Part shown: positions 12,823 through 41,760 of the stretch, piece by piece
How the letters are laid out: each line of letters opens with the position of its first letter
How positions within the stretch are numbered: position 1 is the first letter of the stretch
Origin: Deltaproteobacteria bacterium
Lineage (GTDB): Bacteria > Desulfobacterota > Binatia > UBA9968
Direction of reading: 5' to 3'
NCBI GenBank assembly: GCA_016183145.1
Contig: JACPFE010000206.1
Location: 1 to 50,203 of the forward strand
Length of the DNA: 50,203 nucleotides
Notes under the pieces: model-generated
The model's database searches: none
Seen by the model: the letters and a program-made list of their open reading frames with translations, nothing else
Told to the model about the DNA's origin: nothing
Position numbers and translations under genes: made by a program

Positions 12823-13113
12823 TTATTCAATGACGCCCAGGATGTCATCTTCCTTCATGATGAGATGCTCTTCGCCATCAAGTTTGATTTCAGTGCCCGA
12901 GTATTTTCCGAAAAGGATCTTATCCCCAGCCTTAACACCCAACGGGATAATTTTCCCATCTTCATATCTGCCAGGGCCGACCGCCACAACTTTACCTTCC
13001 TGCGGCTTCTCCTTGGCGGTATCCGGGATGATGATACCTCCCTTGGTTTTCTCCCCTTCCTCTGTGCGCTTAACGATCACCCTGTCATGCAGGGGACGAA
13101 ACTTTATCGCCAT
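12823..13113 (-). CDS. groS: co-chaperonin GroES
   Basis: 96 aa with '[13 protein letters not shown]', '[24 protein letters not shown]' and '[10 protein letters not shown]'. Confidence 0.97.
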
Positions 13114-33944: not shown

Positions 33945-34141
33945 GATTCATTCCTATAACAGAGCCGGCGGGTTGGTGATAAGAGAAGGCCTGTAAAAAG
34001 ATCGGCGTGAGCGAACGCTCATGATTTCGCAGGTATTTCAGATTGGTTCTTGGTTTCTTTGGACCGGTCCCCTCCCTTGGCATCCGCCCCCCAATTCGCA
34101 TAGAATCACGGCAATTTAGTTAGCTAAAGAGGCTCGACTCC

Positions 34142-34327
34142 TTGCCGCGAATCTTCGACAATATCGACCAGCAACTTCTCCCCGCCCTTCGCGAGACGAT
34201 AGAGCTGTCTACCCGCTCCGATTTCTGCGTCGGCTATTTTAATCTCCGGGGATGGAAAGAGATCGATTCCTACAGTGAGCCCTGGCCGGGCGGGGACGGG
34301 CATTATTGCCGGCTGTTTGCCGGGTAG
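34142..34327 (+). pseudogene. N-terminal stub (~60 aa) of a PLD-nuclease/SNF2-helicase type protein
   Basis: 'RIFDNIDQQLLPALRETIELSTRSDFCVGYFNLRGWKEIDS...CRL' matches, from memory, the extreme N-terminus of ~1000-aa PLD-domain + SNF2 helicases. It stops before any HKD motif. Confidence 0.5.
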
Positions 34328-34374
34328 CATGGTGACTGTTAGGCTAGAAGAAGCTCACGCCTTTTCCAAAATAT

Positions 34375-34998
34375 ATGGTTAAAGAATATGAGATCTTGGA
34401 AATCAGGCCACCGCCTGGTCTCGAATCATTTTTTGATGGCAAACCTCCGACACTCTGGGGCTTGGGAGAACCGGCCATCTTAGAGCGCAAGCTTCTTGGG
34501 ATTATTTCTGCTCGACAGATTGATTCTGATCTGGCATTAAAAAGCTCACAGCTCTTGAAACAACTGGCGTTCTTGAAAGAGGTGTCCTTTATAAGCGGGT
34601 GGCATTCTCCCCTGGAGGAAGAAGCGCTCAATATCCTTTTAGCCCAAGAAGCCGCGATCGTTTTCTGTGTTCCTAAGAGCCTTAACCGGTTTGTTCCTTG
34701 CGCGGGAGTCAAGGATCGAGTGAGCCAGGGCGAAGCGCTATTGCTGACTCACTGCAGTCCAAGAGCGAAGCGAATCAGCAGAGATGCATCCCTTCGACGC
34801 AACGAATTGGTTGCAGTTTTGGCAGCGGCTCTGCTGGTTCTGTCCGCGCCGCAAGGGAGTGCCTCGTTGAAGCTCGCCAAATCAGCGCTGCGCTATGGAA
34901 AACCTGTATTGACGCCAGAGCACCGTATGAACAAGGAACTTCTTGGCTGCAACGCCTTACCTGCAACATTCGATAACATCCAAGCGGCCCTGCGATAA
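34375..34998 (+). CDS. DprA/Smf-like Rossmann-fold protein, paralog 1
   Basis: 207 aa with 'LLGIISARQ', 'ISGWHSPLEEEAL', 'IVFCVPKSL', 'ASLRRNELVAVLAAALLVLSAPQGSASLKLAK', laid out like the DprA core (G-rich loop / SG..GID / RNR). The stop is 5 nt before the next gene. Confidence 0.65.
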   Translation: MVKEYEILEIRPPPGLESFFDGKPPTLWGLGEPAILERKLLGIISARQIDSDLALKSSQLLKQLAFLKEVSFISGWHSPLEEEALNILLAQEAAIVFCVPKSLNRFVPCAGVKDRVSQGEALLLTHCSPRAKRISRDASLRRNELVAVLAAALLVLSAPQGSASLKLAKSALRYGKPVLTPEHRMNKELLGCNALPATFDNIQAALR

Positions 34999-35003
34999 GA
35001 ACT

Positions 35004-38000
35004 ATGGCAGCAGCAAAGACACTTGAAGACATCATCGCGGAGCAGGCGCCGATAGTTTGCGAGCAGATTGAAGCGGCCGTCGCGTTTGCCGAGTCGGAAG
35101 AAGATCTCCGGATCGAATGCGAGAAGGCTGTCGAGGTTTTTCGCAAAGAAGCGGATCTTCCGGAGCTGAAAGGTCACCATGAGGTAACGATCGGCAAAGG
35201 CAGAGCCGACTCGGTCTATGATTACGTTTTCATTGAATACAAAAAGCCCGGCCGGTTGAAGGAGTCGAACGATGCGCCGGGAAACCGCGAGGTCATCAAG
35301 CAGCTTCAAGAGCGTGCGAAGGCATTCAAGTCCGAGCTGAAACGAGATCCCAAGGAGCTTTTCGGAGTCGGCACCGACGGGAACTATTTCATCACCGGAA
35401 GGTATCGGAACGGCAGGTGGGAAATTAGCCCCGCCAAAACGCGGTCGGTTTATGTTGTAGAGGATTTTCTTCGAAAGTTATCGAGTCTCGGCGTTGCGGG
35501 CAAACCGTTCCTTGCCGACTACTTGGCCGGAGATTTCGGGGCCGAAAGTGAGCGCAAGCTTGCACGTGAGGGAATTGAGAAGCTCTACTGGCGAATCCGC
35601 GAAGTCGAAAAGAAGGCTGACGAATACCCTAAGGCCAAAGTTCTGTTCGAACAGTGGCGAATTCTCTTTGGCGAGGTCTGCGGGTACGACATCAAGACGC
35701 CGAGTAGCAAGATCAAACAGCTTGGGGAATTCTATGGTGTCAAAAAAGACCCGAATCCCGCTGCTTTGCTTTTCGCGGTTCACAGCTACTACGCGCTTTT
35801 CATGAAATTCTTGGCGGCAGAGATTGCCACGGTATCTGGATGCGTTGGTCTCGGCAAAACGATCGAGGCGGGAATGATCTGGCAAGCGTTGGCCCAGCGG
35901 GGGCAGGCAAAAAGGACCCTGATCATTTGTCCAGCCGGTCTAACGGTTCAATGGCAGGAGGAGATGCAGGATAAGTTCGGACAATTCTTTGAAATTTTCC
36001 AGCGTGATTTTCACACGATCAACCCGCGTATCTGGGACCTCAAGGCGTGCGCTATAGCGTCGTTAGATTGTCTAAAGCGCAAGGAGCACAAGGAAAAACT
36101 CTTCGAAAATCGCAAGTGGGATCTAATCATCTTTGACGAGGCCCATCGTTTGAGCGCGAGAGATTACGGAGAAACCAAAACGGAGAAGACTCAGAACTAC
36201 CGGCTCGCCGAGGATCTGAGAGACCACACGGACGCTTTACTCCTGGTAACTGCCACTCCGCACCAGGGCGACGCGACCCATTCACGCTTTCGCCATCTGC
36301 TTGGATTGCTGGATGACGAGATCGACTTCGGCGGGCTGGAGGACGGTCAGATCACGCTTTGGAACTACGCCGTCAGAGAACCGAGTGGCAACGGCTATCG
36401 GCCATACAAAGAGTACATTCTCCGCACGCCGAAGCTAAACGTGACGGATTCTCAAGGGAGAAAAATCTTCCGCGGACGCGACACCCATGCGCTGCGTTTT
36501 CCGATGTTTAAGGACGAGGCGGAGTTTTATAAGGAAGTCAGCCGCTATATCTCTGCCGGTTACCGCATGGTGGAGCATCTCAAGGATCGCAATAAGAAAC
36601 TAGCCATCGGGTTTGTCCTCACGGTTTTCCAGAAACTAGCTTCCAGCTCGACTCATGCAATCAAGGCGGCTCTTTATGGCCGGAAGATGCGCCTGCAAGA
36701 CAAATATCGGCGGCTGCCGGATTCCGTTGATCGCTTGGAGTCTCTTCTAGACGAAGCGGATGAGCGTTTCGAAGGCGAGACGGAAGAGAAGGCGGCCTGG
36801 AGACTCAAAACCGAGGAGGAATTTGTCAGAGACGAGCTTAAGGATCTCGAACGGCTGATCGCGATGCCGGTGAAACAGGATCGGAAGCTCGTTGAGTTAA
36901 AGCAACTGATTAAGCAGGTTTTCAGCGAAAGCGAAAAGGGCGAGAAAGAAAAAATCCTGATCTTTACCGAGTACAGAAAAACTCAGGACCATTTGGTGGA
37001 GGAGTTGGAGAAAGCGTCCGGAAAAGGATCGGTTGTAATCATCAACGGCGACATGAAATTGGACCAGAGGAAAACCAGCGTTCAGCGATTCCGAGATAAT
37101 GACAACGTCCGCTTTATGGTCAGCACCGAGTCGGGAGGCGAGGGGATCAACCTGCAATTCTGCCACGTTCTGGTTAATTACGACCTGCCTTGGAATCCCA
37201 TGAGAATCGAGCAACGGGTGGGTCGGATTTACCGCTTCGGTCAAACCAAGAGGGTTCAGATCTACAACTTTAGAGGCAAGGAAACCGTGGAGGATAAAAT
37301 TTACGGCTTTCTGGAGCAAAAGATTGATATCGCGGCGAAGGCTTTGGCGAAGGTCACTGGAGAAGACCCGGAAGACATCAAGACCACGATGCTCGGTCAA
37401 TTAGAGAGCGAGGTCGATTACAACTCGATCTACAAACGCGCCATCGTCGAGCAGAACATCGAGCAATCCAAAGAAGAGATCGAAGAAGGGGTCAAAAAGG
37501 CGCAGCTCGCCTATGAGATAGCCACGAACAGCTTGTTTAGAGATGTTTCGGGTTATTCCTTCGCTAATTACGAAAGGGAACTGAAAGCAGACATCGATCT
37601 TGAGGCGTTAAGGGAGCTGACGGAGCGGTTTCTGCAACACCATCACCGCCAGGTGCAAAAGAAAGACGGGCTCGTCGAGTTCCTCACGCCGGAAGACCTA
37701 CAAGGACCCGGCATTGACGAGCGATTTACCAAAGTGACCTTTGACCGCAAAGCAGCCATAGAGAACCCGGACTTAACATTTTTTGCGCTTGGCCACCCAT
37801 TTGTGGATAGCATGCTCAAAGCTTGCGGGGACGTGAGCTTTGGCGGTTATTGCACTCGACGATATGTCAAAAACCCGAAAGTAAGCCCGCGTTACGGGTA
37901 CACGTTTAATTTCATTGTGCGACAACGAATTCACAGGGACGACCACGAAGAGTTTTTGTTTGCGCTGCATCCTATATTCGTCGGGGATGATGGTACGATT

Positions 38001-38192
38001 GACGACATCGCAGCGAGGGTGTGTTTGGAATCTTATGGCGATTCGCTCAACAGAGAAATTCAGATCCATCTCGGACCCGACGGCGCCTTTGAAATCGCCA
38101 AAGGTCGCCTTCAGAAGCAAGTTAAAACTATCTGGGATTGGGAAGAGGACGTAACCTTACTGAATCTCGCTTTAGTCGCCGTTGGGTCGTGA
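35004..38192 (+). CDS. PD-(D/E)xK nuclease-like N-module fused to SNF2-family helicase core
   Basis: Residues 1-~278: 'GKGRADSVYDYVFIEYKKPG' (D...ExK) and 'LLFAVHSYYALFMKFLAAEI', which resemble the N-terminal part of type IIG/MmeI-YeeA-like R-M enzymes. From residue 282: 'GLGKTIEAG', 'IICPAGLTVQWQEEM', 'DEAHRLS', 'LLVTATPHQG', 'GGEGINLQ' and 'DLPWNPMRIEQRVGRIYRFGQ'. Confidence 0.85.
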   Translation: MAAAKTLEDIIAEQAPIVCEQIEAAVAFAESEEDLRIECEKAVEVFRKEADLPELKGHHEVTIGKGRADSVYDYVFIEYKKPGRLKESNDAPGNREVIKQLQERAKAFKSELKRDPKELFGVGTDGNYFITGRYRNGRWEISPAKTRSVYVVEDFLRKLSSLGVAGKPFLADYLAGDFGAESERKLAREGIEKLYWRIREVEKKADEYPKAKVLFEQWRILFGEVCGYDIKTPSSKIKQLGEFYGVKKDPNPAALLFAVHSYYALFMKFLAAEIATVSGCVGLGKTIEAGMIWQALAQRGQAKRTLIICPAGLTVQWQEEMQDKFGQFFEIFQRDFHTINPRIWDLKACAIASLDCLKRKEHKEKLFENRKWDLIIFDEAHRLSARDYGETKTEKTQNYRLAEDLRDHTDALLLVTATPHQGDATHSRFRHLLGLLDDEIDFGGLEDGQITLWNYAVREPSGNGYRPYKEYILRTPKLNVTDSQGRKIFRGRDTHALRFPMFKDEAEFYKEVSRYISAGYRMVEHLKDRNKKLAIGFVLTVFQKLASSSTHAIKAALYGRKMRLQDKYRRLPDSVDRLESLLDEADERFEGETEEKAAWRLKTEEEFVRDELKDLERLIAMPVKQDRKLVELKQLIKQVFSESEKGEKEKILIFTEYRKTQDHLVEELEKASGKGSVVIINGDMKLDQRKTSVQRFRDNDNVRFMVSTESGGEGINLQFCHVLVNYDLPWNPMRIEQRVGRIYRFGQTKRVQIYNFRGKETVEDKIYGFLEQKIDIAAKALAKVTGEDPEDIKTTMLGQLESEVDYNSIYKRAIVEQNIEQSKEEIEEGVKKAQLAYEIATNSLFRDVSGYSFANYERELKADIDLEALRELTERFLQHHHRQVQKKDGLVEFLTPEDLQGPGIDERFTKVTFDRKAAIENPDLTFFALGHPFVDSMLKACGDVSFGGYCTRRYVKNPKVSPRYGYTFNFIVRQRIHRDDHEEFLFALHPIFVGDDGTIDDIAARVCLESYGDSLNREIQIHLGPDGAFEIAKGRLQKQVKTIWDWEEDVTLLNLALVAVGS

Positions 38193-38377: not shown

Positions 38378-38614
38378 CTAACTCTTCTGCCTCAGCTCTA
38401 AATCAAAGCGAAGAACATGCTCGCCGATTCGATGGCCGATGAACCTGATCGCTGCATTTTCACTCGCTTCGTTTAAGAAATTCCGGTTATGACTGGGGTC
38501 TTGCATAGGAATCGATTCCGCTGAAAAAGTCCAATTCCAAGAATCGGGGAAAAATATTTCGCTCACAGAAGCTCTGTAACGCACGATCGGAGCTTGGTTA
38601 CTGATTTTCTTCAT
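38378..38614 (-). CDS. hypothetical protein (78 aa), only minus-strand ORF in the island
   Basis: ORF only. It could be a gene fragment. Confidence 0.25.
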   Translation of the reverse strand: MKKISNQAPIVRYRASVSEIFFPDSWNWTFSAESIPMQDPSHNRNFLNEASENAAIRFIGHRIGEHVLRFDLELRQKS

Positions 38615-38794: not shown

Positions 38795-38822
38795 AACAAT
38801 GTGTCGCCCCGATCGATGCTGA

Positions 38823-38854
38823 TTGCGTAGTTGCGCAATTGCGCAACTACGCAA
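38823..38854. repeat. perfect 32-bp palindrome TTGCGTAGTTGCGCAATTGCGCAACTACGCAA
   Basis: Read directly. Built from four TTGCG(T/C)A(G/A)-type octamers, two forward and two inverted. Confidence 0.9.
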
Positions 38855-38966
38855 CTATCCCCGGTCGGCGGAATCCTGGACGATTTTGCACGCCGCGCAA
38901 GTGTTTGATAGTGTCACCCGCAACGAGGACGCCACTAACGAAGAAAGCCGGCAGAAGGAAGGGTAA

Positions 38967-39080
38967 ATCAAAAGGGTGCTGGCGGCGCACTACGGATTCA
39001 CGGACGAGGAGTTGGACTTCATCATCAACTACGACATCAAGTACCGGATGGGACAGGACGTGGAAGCTGAAGACGAATGA
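38967..39080 (+). pseudogene. C-terminal tail remnant of a DNA methyltransferase / type IIG R-M gene
   Basis: Open for only 37 codons: 'IKRVLAAHYGFTDEELDFIINYDIKYRMGQDVEAEDE*'. As I recall, the 'YG(F/L)T(D/E)EE(L/I)' tail is characteristic of these methyltransferases. There is no upstream body. Confidence 0.5.
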
Positions 39081-39179: not shown

Positions 39180-40421
39180 GTGTTAAAGAAATTGATCGTT
39201 AAGGGTTTTAAGTCGCTGGAGGATGTCGCTGTCGAATTTCCCCGAATGGCGGTGCTTTTTGGTCCCAATGCCGCGGGGAAAAGTAATCTTCTGGACGCGA
39301 TCCAAGCGCTGTCTCGCATCGGAACAAGCCGGACCCTGTCCGATGCCCTATCGGAACCCATCAGGGGATACCCGATAGAGGCGTTTGCTTTTCCGGCAGG
39401 TGGTCTAGCTGCACTGCTCAGTCAAACGAGGGCAAGCTTCTCTCTTGAAACGGTTTTGGATGTGGGAATAGAACATTTTCTTTACAACTATCGTTTTTCG
39501 GTTGAGATCCAGCCAGGTTCCGGCAGCGTAAGCGTGCAGGACGAATATCTCGTTACGCTGGGCAAGCGAGGCGAACCAAAAGGAAATCCGTCAATAGAAA
39601 GGGTCGAAGATCAGCTCCGAATTCGTCGCAAGAGCAAACCAGCTAATCCCCGGCGGGAAAATGTGGGCCAAAATTATGCGATCCTGTCAGACCCACGATG
39701 GAGTGGAGTTGAATACCGTGCCATCGAACGCTGTCGTAACGAGCTTTCAGGATGGCGTACTTATTACCTCGATCCGCGCGTGGCCATGCGTTCGGCTCGT
39801 CCACCTTCAGATGTGAGGGACATAGGAGTTTTGGGAGAAGATATCGCACCATTCTTATACCGTCTGCGTGCAGAACAGCCGAAGCGTTTTGATGCCGTCA
39901 AACGGACACTCCGTTCCTTGATCCCGAGCGTGGAGGACCTGACAGTTGATCTGGACAAGAAGCGCGGCACACTGGACATTCTGGTTCGGCAGGGCGGAAA
40001 GGAATTCTCATCACGCATAGTCTCTGAAGGGACCCTTCGCGTGCTCGCGCTCTGCGCGCTAACGGTGAACCCTTGGAGCGGTTCACTTCTCGCCTTCGAA
40101 GAGCCAGAGAACGGAGTTCACCCGCGACGTCTTGAGCTAATCGTGCAGCTCCTATCGTCCCTCGCAGTTGACTCTGGCCGCCAAATCGTTGTTACGACTC
40201 ACTCGCCTCTGTTCTGCGACGCGGTTCTGAAACTTGCGAAGCAGCAACCGAAGGAAATCGCTTTGCTCAGAGTTCGCCAGGGCGGTCAAGGCACGGAGAT
40301 AGTGCCGTTTAGCGTTAGTGCCCCCCTCTTTAAGGACCTGGAGATCGCCGAGGCACTAACAACTGGGACAGAAGACGGACTCTTCGAAAGCCTGATCCTT
40401 CGGGGAATGATTGATGAGTAG
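39180..40421 (+). CDS. AAA/ABC-type ATPase (AAA_15/AAA_21-like, OLD/PARIS-AriA-like)
   Basis: 'FGPNAAGKSNLLDAIQAL' Walker A, 'SEGTLRVLAL' signature-like and 'LLAFEEPENGVHP' Walker B. 413 aa. Confidence 0.85.
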   Translation: MLKKLIVKGFKSLEDVAVEFPRMAVLFGPNAAGKSNLLDAIQALSRIGTSRTLSDALSEPIRGYPIEAFAFPAGGLAALLSQTRASFSLETVLDVGIEHFLYNYRFSVEIQPGSGSVSVQDEYLVTLGKRGEPKGNPSIERVEDQLRIRRKSKPANPRRENVGQNYAILSDPRWSGVEYRAIERCRNELSGWRTYYLDPRVAMRSARPPSDVRDIGVLGEDIAPFLYRLRAEQPKRFDAVKRTLRSLIPSVEDLTVDLDKKRGTLDILVRQGGKEFSSRIVSEGTLRVLALCALTVNPWSGSLLAFEEPENGVHPRRLELIVQLLSSLAVDSGRQIVVTTHSPLFCDAVLKLAKQQPKEIALLRVRQGGQGTEIVPFSVSAPLFKDLEIAEALTTGTEDGLFESLILRGMIDE

Positions 40422-41013
40422 CCCGCTGACTGTGGATCTTTTTGCCGAAGATCGCGCTCATGAAGAGTTTCTGCGAGCTATGCTTAACAGAATCTCCGAC
40501 GAACAAGAGAGATACCTCACCGTTCGCGTGCGCTCGGCGAGGGGAGGCCACCCGCGGGTTCTTGAAGAATTGTCGTTGTATCAAAAGAGCGTCTTGAAAG
40601 CTCCGGAGAGTTTGTCGATGCCGGACCTGCTTTTCATTGCTATCGATGCCAACTGTAAGCGTTGGAATAGAGCGAGAAGGGATATTCAAGGAACAATCCA
40701 GTCCCAATTCGCGGCGCGCGCAATTGTGGCTTGTCCGGACCCCCATATCGAACGTTGGTATCTCGCAGACCCAGACTCCTTTGCGCAGGTTGTTGGAGTC
40801 CGCCCCAAGGTTGGAAAGAGAAAATGCGAAAGAGATCGATACAAGGCGATTCTTTCGAAAGCCATTGTCGATGCCGGGCATCCAGCAACGCTAGGAGGAA
40901 TCGAGTTCGCTCGGGAGTTAGTTGCCGCTATGGATCTCTATCGGGCCGGAAAAGCCGAAGGGAGCCTCAAACATTTTCTTGACGAAACCATTGCTCGCGT
41001 TAAGACCCTTTGA
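40411..41013 (+). CDS. Toprim-like / DUF4276-like partner protein
   Basis: Overlaps the ATPase stop by 11 nt. 'VDLFAEDRAHEEFLRAML', 'LLFIAIDAN' and 'PHIERWYLADPDSF' resemble the vEG.tE / D.D / iE.W.laD pattern of DUF4276/OLD-Toprim proteins (from memory). The second Asp of DxD is Asn here. Confidence 0.5.
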   Translation: MMSSPLTVDLFAEDRAHEEFLRAMLNRISDEQERYLTVRVRSARGGHPRVLEELSLYQKSVLKAPESLSMPDLLFIAIDANCKRWNRARRDIQGTIQSQFAARAIVACPDPHIERWYLADPDSFAQVVGVRPKVGKRKCERDRYKAILSKAIVDAGHPATLGGIEFARELVAAMDLYRAGKAEGSLKHFLDETIARVKTL

Positions 41014-41068
41014 AAACCCAAACCAGCAGCAGTCGCGCGGAACGGAAGAACTTCCTGCACAAGAACGA

Positions 41069-41656
41069 ATGGGAATAAGTCCAATTCAGGTCGCGACACT
41101 GACGTCATCGCAAGCTCGTTGGCCTCGCGGGCTTGCTAATAGGCTACGTCGTGATGTTCCTTCTCGACTCTGGGCCATCGGAAGCCCTGAAATTCTCGAT
41201 GAGAAGAAGGTCGGCCTGTTTTGCTCGGTTCGTTGTCCAGGTGATGCCATTCTCGACGCTTACGACAGCGCCCGGAAGCTACGTGATGAAGGCGTGACTG
41301 TCGTTAGTGGCTTTCACTCTCCCGTAGAAAAGGAATGCCTGCGAATTCTGCTGCGAGGGAAACAACCAATCATCATGTGCTTGGCACGGGCGTTAGAAAA
41401 GATTCGCCTGCCGGCTGACTGGCGCAGCGCTGTGGAAGCCGGCCGCTTATTGCTTATTTCACCGTTCGAGAAGCGGCCACGGCGTCCGACAAAGGAGGCC
41501 TCCCAGCGTCGCAACGAAATCGTCGCCGCGCTGTCGGATGAGGTTCTAATCATACACGCCGAATCAGGCGGCAGCGTAGCGCGAATCTCGCAGATGGTTG
41601 AACATTGGAAAGTGCCCAAACTCAATCTACCGAACAACGGAGGTAAGTCCTCTTAA
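41069..41656 (+). CDS. DprA/Smf-like Rossmann-fold protein, paralog 2
   Basis: 195 aa from 'MGISPIQ', with 'VGLFCSVRCPGD', 'VSGFHSPVEKECL', 'IIMCLARAL' and 'ASQRRNEIVAALSDEVLIIHAESGGSVARISQ'. Collinear with paralog 1. Confidence 0.65.
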   Translation: MGISPIQVATLTSSQARWPRGLANRLRRDVPSRLWAIGSPEILDEKKVGLFCSVRCPGDAILDAYDSARKLRDEGVTVVSGFHSPVEKECLRILLRGKQPIIMCLARALEKIRLPADWRSAVEAGRLLLISPFEKRPRRPTKEASQRRNEIVAALSDEVLIIHAESGGSVARISQMVEHWKVPKLNLPNNGGKSS

Positions 41657-41712: not shown

Positions 41713-41760
41713 TGTGGCGGCCGCGCGATACGGGTTTACGGACGAGGAGTTGGACTTTCC
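41713..41760 (+). pseudogene. second, shorter methyltransferase-tail remnant
   Basis: 'VAAARYGFTDEELDF' then divergence. The DNA tacgggtttacggacgaggagttggacttt matches 38991-39020 at 27 of 30 positions. Confidence 0.4.

Follow-up and report, generated by a model that had tools for sequence, protein, structure and literature searches.

The open reading frame (ORF) considered here lies at positions 35004 to 38192, on the forward strand, of a 50,203-bp stretch of DNA from a Deltaproteobacteria bacterium (GenBank assembly GCA_016183145.1, contig JACPFE010000206.1), which we refer to as the window. It joins the N-terminal nuclease of a type IIG restriction-modification (R-M) enzyme, in frame, to an SNF2 helicase that begins at its ATP-binding loop. 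We regard this ORF as probably a young, non-functional remnant—a pseudogene—of a decayed phage-defence operon, left by two nested deletions across adjacent genes. The window is the entire contig (C496) of a metagenome-assembled genome (MAG) of 789 contigs and 5.45 Mb, with 4.9% contamination. The ORF runs for 1062 codons with no internal stop, and its product, P0001, is 1062 amino acids (aa) long; the whole and its two parts are as follows.

35004 to 38192, forward strand: fusion ORF encoding P0001; by exact look-up, this protein is recorded for the window's own contig only.
35004 to 35830, forward strand: type IIG part, codons 1 to 275 plus 2 nt, with a PD-(D/E)xK nuclease (D69, E78, K80) and a helical linker; assigned by profile, aa identity and DNA homology.
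35846 to 38192, forward strand: SNF2 (RapA/DrmD-like) helicase, codons 130 to 911 plus the stop; assigned by aa identity, Pfam and NCBIfam matches, alignment with relatives and a RapA alignment.

An earlier note, made from the sequence alone, had described the protein as an in-frame chimera of an R-M-type nuclease module and an SNF2 protein from motif I onwards, and profiles and alignments bear this out. Residues 18 to 287 match positions 11 to 273 of the 1100 in the PADLOC profile REase_MTase_IIG (E 6.8e-40), and residues 1 to 279 are 91-94% identical to the N-termini of full-length type IIG enzymes of 1088-1093 aa; the D...ExK motif and helical segment of a type IIG-like N-terminus were thus correctly recognised. 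The motif reads D69...E78-x-K80 (D-X8-E-X-K) and is kept in relatives, the type IIG homology ends at residue 276-279, and there is no Pfam match to the MmeI N-terminal or helical-domain families at E 1. The helicase part keeps Walker A (GLGKT, at 35847-35861, where the note had placed motif I), DEAH ('FDEAH', residues 377-381 in the alignment with relatives), Helicase_C and a RapA_C-like tail. Pfam gives Helicase_C at E 1.6e-24, SNF2-rel_dom at 37.7 bits (cut-off 24.9) and RapA_C below threshold; NCBIfam gives RapA and DrmD (NF038317), the latter at 318.6 bits against a cut-off of 610. Residues 281 to 1062 are 93% identical to residues 130 to 911 of a 911-aa helicase, and the helicase part is likewise 93% identical to residues 127 to 910 of P0003.

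Intact type IIG relatives carry N6_Mtase and Eco57I domains; P0001 has no N6_Mtase, Eco57I or MmeI_Mtase match in Pfam up to E 1 and no methyltransferase match in NCBIfam, so that the methyltransferase body is indeed missing, and the target-recognition domain (TRD) is missing with it. On the helicase side P0001 has lost the N-terminal Tudor-like domain, the LPHQ sequence (the Q motif) and, ahead of the P-loop, the 'RFLLADE' strand, and from residue 281 (~281-950) the BrxHI, DrmD and HmaA profiles are matched only from profile position ~116-147 on. Aligned relatives have a helicase N-terminus of ~130 residues ending '...ARTEILPHQIFAAHKVV.S.KRRFLLADE|VGLGKT', where the window reads '...YYALFMKFLAAEIATVSGC|VGLGKT'; their '...ILPHQIF...RRFLLADE' is replaced by type IIG sequence and the residues VSGC, and the peptide across the fusion junction is '...AAEIATVSGCVGLGK'. 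The same loss is seen against RapA, the best solved match of an intact helicase relative (E 3e-42): RapA 'IPHQ...RVLLADEVGLGKT' aligns with 'LPHQ...RFLLADEVGLGKT' of the relatives, and everything before 'V' is gone from the window, including the '...IPHQ...RVLLADE' that is conserved directly ahead of GLGKT. The pre-motif-I segment is therefore absent, as the note had said.

Searches with the whole protein and with its N-terminal part found no full-length homolog sharing the junction among the best 120 of 6125 scored helicase relatives (52-82% coverage, from 5.8 billion protein clusters); nor was the fused form present in any of the 40 related genomes searched or elsewhere in the window's own genome. 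Among the matches listed, the whole of P0001 retrieves helicases only (up to 93% identity, 886-940 aa, 73-82% of the query covered) together with a 772-aa gene call of the window itself, beginning at Met291. Residues 1 to 285 retrieve enzymes of 1088-1093 aa, at up to 94% identity, all with N6_Mtase and Eco57I. Among these listed matches, then, helicase relatives cover P0001 only from ~200-280 to 1062, and the relatives of the N-terminus are all methylase-bearing proteins of ~1090 aa. In three genomes (G011, G021 and G026) the two halves are matched separately, ~2.8-3.7 kb apart on the same strand. The missing type IIG body and helicase N-terminus were not found elsewhere in the 5.45-Mb assembly, and a 30-mer across the primary junction had no match in the JGI metagenome contigs scanned. 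An apparent fusion of the DprA-like and type IIG genes in G021 (open frame of 1145 aa) was rejected as the artefact of a run of N.

The source of the two halves is a conserved one-strand cassette, in which relatives up to 94% identical carry the type IIG and helicase genes separately. Its order is a 61-codon ORF, a DprA-like gene (200-209 aa), a type IIG gene (1088-1093 aa), a spacer of ~10 nt and an SNF2 helicase gene (886-916 aa). Three intact cassettes (L003-L005) share this gene order and a 10-nt spacer, and in three more (L006, L030 and L031) the order is unchanged and the spacer is 10-109 nt long; with two genomes (G011 and G026) added to these six loci, the DprA-like / type IIG / RapA-like SNF2 trio is a recurrent cassette, for which there is no name in the literature searched. 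Compared with these intact copies from related uncultured soil and sediment bacteria, the window has the same order and strand, the 61-codon ORF and an intact DprA-like gene. Its surviving parts are 91-94% identical in protein, and its DNA is collinear up to each junction; however, it has lost type IIG codons ~277-326 and everything from type IIG codon 332 on, the spacer and the first 129 helicase codons, and the two large genes have been cut down and fused into one ORF. What the window holds is a degraded copy of a conserved cassette, not a working member.

DNA homology of the window to all relatives stops at 35830/35831 and resumes at 35844: positions 34092-35830 are collinear with L003 5806-7547 and 35844-38170 with L003 10388-12732, with ~2.84 kb of L003 missing between them, and the same two break points are found against L001, L005, L006, L026-L028, L030 and L031. 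Comparison of the window and its closest relatives—seven sister contigs, described below—with intact type IIG and helicase genes distinguishes two junctions.

35844 to 35846, forward strand: junction 1, the primary deletion of ~2.68 kb (L031 2512-5187), from type IIG codon 331/332 to helicase codon 130; placed by three-way comparison.
35830 to 35831, forward strand: junction 2, a window-specific 152-nt deletion that removed type IIG codons ~277-326; the 152 nt are present in all seven sister contigs (L033-L039).
35831 to 35845, forward strand: a 15-nt type IIG leftover, 'GGTATCTGGATGCGT' (from '...S W Y L D A'), which in the sisters runs on unbroken from the type IIG sequence.

Junction 1 lies at 35845|35846 and is common to the window and all seven sisters, eight contigs in total. 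Its type IIG side reads '...TGGTATCTGGATGCGT' and its helicase side '(GT)TGGTCTCGGC...', with the GT overlap inside an imperfect microhomology (GATGcG-T / GATGaGGT); taken alone it is an out-of-frame join. The 152 nt lost at junction 2 are, in the sisters, genuine type IIG codons ('...TMFNPLSASFLAGLHQAGSTEKLREKLRELEDGGIYRHLGIKNFLEGDLFS') homologous to the same stretch of every intact relative, and since 152 is 3x50+2, their loss restores the reading frame into the helicase. The 15-nt leftover, which matches 'AGCTGGTATCTGGATGC' of L030, L031 and L026, is read out of frame in the window as V277-S-G-C280 (codon 276 is still Thr), and Val281-Gly-Leu-Gly-Lys-Thr follows in the helicase frame. The window junction reads 'GATTGCCACGGTATCTGG'; expressed as states, the window is 'GATTGCCAC|GGTATCTGG' and the sisters are 'GATTGCCAC|CATGTTT' plus 'TTTTAGCT|GGTATCTGG'. 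A repeat search at both junctions found no direct repeat flanking either deletion. Two other origins for this sequence were discarded: a 12-13 nt 'filler' from the helicase side (CTGG..ATG similarity), because the sisters show contiguous type IIG sequence, and a crossover at the similarity of 'KFLAAEI' and 'RFLLADE' (shared TTCTTG), because the window keeps type IIG sequence past that point. Both breaks lie within the interval 35830-35846 in which the note had put a recombination junction; the join is real, however it is a deletion across adjacent genes of one operon, with two junctions, and brought no unrelated loci together.

The sister contigs capture the intermediate state. Exact look-ups of the 772-aa product and of a one-residue variant (P0242) located them in four NCBI MAGs (GCA_016176915.1, GCA_016184285.1, GCA_016187805.1 and GCA_016192765.1) and three Logan assemblies (SRR12113426, SRR12113429 and SRR12113432); all are >99.5% identical to the window over the locus, and all seven keep, between window positions 35830 and 35831, the 152 nt missing from the window alone. 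In them the type IIG frame runs past 'WYLDA' and enters helicase DNA out of frame ('LVSAKRSRRE*'), leaving a 341-aa ORF (250 aa in L034) and the 772-aa fragment. The helicase frame is open for just 15 codons upstream of Met291, and because there is no start codon among these, Walker A is untranslatable; a helicase that starts after Walker A, as this one would on the sequence, could not be an ATPase. One sister, L034, has a further 83-nt deletion in its type IIG stump (window 35642-35724), which shortens the stump to 250 aa and points to ongoing decay. The window, for its part, carries a private non-synonymous single-nucleotide polymorphism (SNP), which makes its strain a distinct genotype.

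36102, forward strand: window-private SNP, TTC (Phe367) in place of CTC (Leu); the residue is Leu in all seven sisters and in eight of eight aligned relatives.

Together, these states trace a two-step history. The ancestor had the 61-codon ORF, the DprA-like gene, a type IIG enzyme of ~1089 aa (nuclease, helical linker, N6-adenine methylase and specificity domain) and a RapA/DrmD-like SNF2 helicase of ~911 aa. The ~2.68-kb deletion, observed in all eight contigs, was an illegitimate event at the 2-nt (GT) overlap; it took out the type IIG gene from codon 332 onwards, the 10-nt spacer and the first 129 codons of the helicase, leaving the stumps joined out of frame in the state that survives in the sisters. 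The 152-nt deletion just upstream, seen in one assembly only, then shifted the frame by 2 nt, so that the type IIG start reads through VSGC and Walker A into the helicase, giving 1062 aa. As a neutral accident, such a restoration of frame has one chance in three.

Two sets of losses bear on the likely activity of the product. For site recognition and for self-protection, type IIG enzymes depend on their methylase-TRD body. In RecA-fold ATPases the P-loop lies between strand beta-1 and helix alpha-1, and SF2/SNF2 enzymes bind adenine via an upstream Q motif. The fused protein lacks the methylase and TRD, and with them type IIG specificity and self-protection, and it also lacks the Q motif and the beta-strand leading into the P-loop. 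Because these parts have been lost, ATP hydrolysis by P0001 and its targeting to DNA are both unlikely, and we expect neither ATPase nor targeted nuclease activity from it.

The note had pointed to the length of the open frame, but this has no force as evidence: in the immediate ancestral state the frame was shut, and the helicase part has simply had too little time to decay. Compared pairwise with the closest intact helicase (L001), the helicase part has a dN (non-synonymous divergence) of 0.031 and a dS (synonymous divergence) of 0.71, a dN/dS of 0.044. We used counts of private aa changes because dS to the outgroups is saturated, which makes three-point branch-specific dN/dS unreliable. In the helicase the window lineage has 10 such changes and its relatives 16, 24 and 41; in the type IIG N-terminus it has 4 and they have 3, 1, 6 and 7. 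As there is no excess of aa change, nearly all of the divergence predates the deletions and the events are recent, and the 3.2-kb open frame reflects youth, not maintenance. The 83-nt deletion in L034 and Leu367Phe are small signs of drift; as evidence of relaxed constraint, the single change Leu367Phe is only anecdotal.

The in-frame state could instead be an error of assembly or consensus, the organism carrying the sister state and the contig having dropped 152 nt; we consider this unlikely. Only one of the eight contigs is without the 152 nt, and the MAG is fragmented and partly contaminated, as given above. However, the 152 nt have no flanking repeat at which a de Bruijn path might collapse, so the novel junction k-mer must come from reads, and the private SNP at 36102 marks a distinct genotype, not a mis-assembly of the same reads. 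Such an error could in any case explain the 152-nt step only; the 2.68-kb deletion, present in eight independent contigs, is certainly real.

A further alternative is a functional fusion: the second deletion would have been selected for reviving the helicase motor, tethered to the PD-(D/E)xK nuclease, as a specificity-free, motor-driven nuclease resembling HmaA, ZorD, PLD-SNF2 proteins or the N-terminal half of a type ISP enzyme, which might work with the upstream DprA-like protein. Several observations favour it and weigh against a dead remnant. Walker A is back in a translatable ORF behind an intact start and an upstream operon, as selection for a revived motor would also give; the remaining catalytic motifs (D...ExK, GLGKT, DEAH and Helicase_C) are all intact; and nuclease-SNF2 fusions are proven defence proteins against phage (HmaA, PMC11232893). 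The ZorD and PLD_Helicase profiles match the helicase core, and PLD-helicase relatives of ~1096 aa are common within this same helicase family, so that the architecture is not absurd. It must also be said that the second step rests on one contig, and that an AlphaFold2 model of the fusion (43-row alignment; mean pLDDT, the model's per-residue confidence score, of 55, with residues 214-284 below 50) is too poor to judge 'ATVSGC' as a replacement for the lost strand.

We nevertheless hold a selected, working fusion to be quite unlikely. The state occurs in one of eight near-identical contigs and in no diverged lineage, its immediate ancestor was already dead, and an accidental frame fix is not a rare outcome at the chance given above. 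The helicase has lost its entire N-terminal domain along with the Q motif and the strand that leads into the P-loop, the structure model lends no support, and the sole private substitution is non-synonymous, at a position where every sister and every relative has Leu. It is also very unlikely that we are seeing the birth of a new defence gene, in which the 152-nt deletion revived an ATP-binding loop, welded it to an orphaned nuclease and is now polymorphic in a natural population (one of eight contigs). That a type IIG nuclease module is natively fused to SNF2 motif I as a conserved architecture is scarcely credible: nothing was found in its favour, no full-length homolog lies within reach of the searches, and the four junction residues come from type IIG nucleotides translated in another frame.

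The remainder of the cassette lies upstream of the fusion ORF, and comprises a putative promoter and two genes.

34077 to 34106, forward strand: putative promoter-like site at the left edge of the cassette, TTGGCA-18-TAGAAT; 10/12 in a consensus scan, overlapping the start (34092) of DNA homology to intact cassettes.
34142 to 34327, forward strand: 61-codon ORF, first gene of the cassette, weakly like the N-terminus of a PLD domain; 90% identity in L003 and L005, 98% in sister L033.
34375 to 34998, forward strand: DprA-like (DNA_processg_A / SLOG-type) gene, 207 aa, intact; Pfam PF02481 at E 2.5e-16, and the PADLOC PsyrA and ShosA profiles.

The 61-codon ORF had been taken as the stub of a PLD N-terminus, displaced by the same single junction that was to explain the missing methyltransferase and pre-motif-I segment. 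The likeness is there, if weak: 12 of 36 residues are identical to residues 8-43 of the PLD-SNF2 protein P0042 (pairwise BLASTP, E 6e-6), and the ORF resembles the first strand-helix-strand of the PLD (HKD) domain—roughly the first 40 residues of PLD-SNF2 relatives—ending before any HKD motif. It has no Pfam or NCBIfam match. However, it is a conserved cassette gene and no by-product of the junction; it ends at the same stop in the intact cassettes L003 and L005, where the big genes are whole, and is kept at 90% identity across loci with ~85% DNA identity. The deletions account for the methylase and pre-motif-I losses and leave this ORF out of the explanation. It may serve as a small regulatory gene, or it may be an old remnant; whether a standing cassette component or a much older relic, it is no evidence for the fusion junction.

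The cassette itself varies among relatives. The DprA-like gene precedes the type IIG gene in eight loci (L003-L006, L026, L027, L030 and L031). In a complete genome of the same order (L029, G026:C1, 5552-12440) there is no DprA-like gene upstream of the type IIG-helicase pair, and a 198-aa gene of no assigned family stands between the type IIG (1083 aa) and helicase (990 aa) genes; what stays constant in the cassette is therefore the type IIG-helicase pair. In a genome of the same family as the window (L026, G011:C88, 4938-8259) the type IIG gene is split into ORFs of 951 and 177 aa by a frameshift or sequencing error, and the cassette appears prone to decay in that family. In a genome of another genus (L027, G010:C97, ~7380) type IIG is truncated, its homology ending after '...AGCTGGTACCTGG' (WYL|) with unrelated genes next; this break is only ~6 nt from the window's primary junction, and two independent breaks so close together may mark a hot spot. 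The window's MAG has two more SNF2 helicase paralogues on other contigs (C734:928-2538 and C372:721-2595), 37-39% identical to the intact relative, which are probably part of separate defence loci.

Downstream of the helicase the sequence is polymorphic as well. The noncoding stretch 38459-38563 shows small indels relative to sisters L033 and L034, and ~55 nt of the window is absent in L033. L034 (GCA_016184285.1) is collinear with the window to 38853, inside a palindrome at 38809-38868; from L034 position 13022, other genes (PIN, amidohydrolase) replace HEC-01, and this change at 38853/38854 reflects either an exchange between strains at the palindrome or a chimeric contig. HEC-01 (an AAA_21 ATPase at 39180-40421 and a DUF4276/TOPRIM-like gene at 40411-41013) and a second DprA-like gene (40922-41656) are bracketed by 44-nt direct repeats at 38976-39019 and 41714-41757, which are 84% identical and encode a '...YGFTDEELDF'-type tail; L003 also has one copy of the repeat, beyond its helicase gene (12876-12934), and the pair around the HEC-01 cassette looks like an insertion scar.

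The biology here is ordinary, operon decay by deletion; it is the two-step history that is unusually clear, with natural polymorphism to document it. The locus serves as a caution that nested deletions can by accident leave a defence island with a long and clean in-frame ORF of several domains, and as an example of how strain-level sister assemblies can reveal the intermediate state. It also illustrates the rapid stepwise decay of a restriction-like cassette in one population—2.68 kb, then 152 nt in one strain and 83 nt in another—in keeping with the idea of fast gain and loss of defence systems. Additionally, it brings further loci to the recurrent DprA-like / type IIG / RapA-like SNF2 trio. 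An active fusion would amount to a natural experiment in domain shuffling, with a restriction nuclease and a motor as the parts exchanged.

Read as a remnant, P0001 resembles parts of several known systems and the whole of none. With type IIG enzymes of the Eco57I / MmeI class it shares the N-terminal PD-(D/E)xK nuclease and helical linker; it lacks their N6-adenine methylase and TRD, and so would have neither sequence recognition nor self-protection. With RapA (8so8, 6bog) and DrmD-like SNF2 ATPases it shares Walker A, DEAH, Helicase_C and the RapA_C-like tail; in contrast to these it starts at Walker A, without the Tudor-like domain, Q motif and preceding strand, so that RecA lobe 1 is incomplete. 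Type ISP enzymes (LlaGI / LlaBIII class) have a nuclease and then a helicase from the N-terminus, followed by methylase and TRD, with a complete motor. P0001 shares their nuclease-helicase order, as compared by domain order only, and lacks the methylase, the TRD and a complete motor.

Known defence systems did not supply a name for the parent cassette. MANTIS/Gao_RL was rejected in the absence of DUF499 and DUF3870, and DISARM, BREX and Hma in the absence of DrmA/DrmB, PglZ and the HmaA C-terminal nuclease. DrmD stays below its 610-bit cut-off in P0001 and also in the intact relative (345 bits), and profile scans of the window neighbours gave a DprA-like gene, HEC-01 and an MFS transporter, with no DrmA or DrmB among them. 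P0001 matches only positions 132-647 of the 1176 in the HmaA profile, without the C-terminal nuclease; in the Hma system HmaA is an SNF2 helicase with a C-terminal PD-(D/E)xK nuclease, partnered by a methylase and an ATPase (PMC11232893). Like P0001, HmaA, ZorD and PLD-SNF2 proteins, including those of the MANTIS MtsD type (bioRxiv 10.64898/2026.09.23.753747), place a nuclease and an SF2/SNF2 motor on one chain. The nuclease is C-terminal in HmaA and ZorD (PMC11232893; PADLOC profile notes), and in PLD-SNF2 proteins the PLD domain precedes a complete motor; the junctions of all three are conserved across many genomes, whereas that of P0001 is unique, contains out-of-frame codons and leads into a truncated motor.

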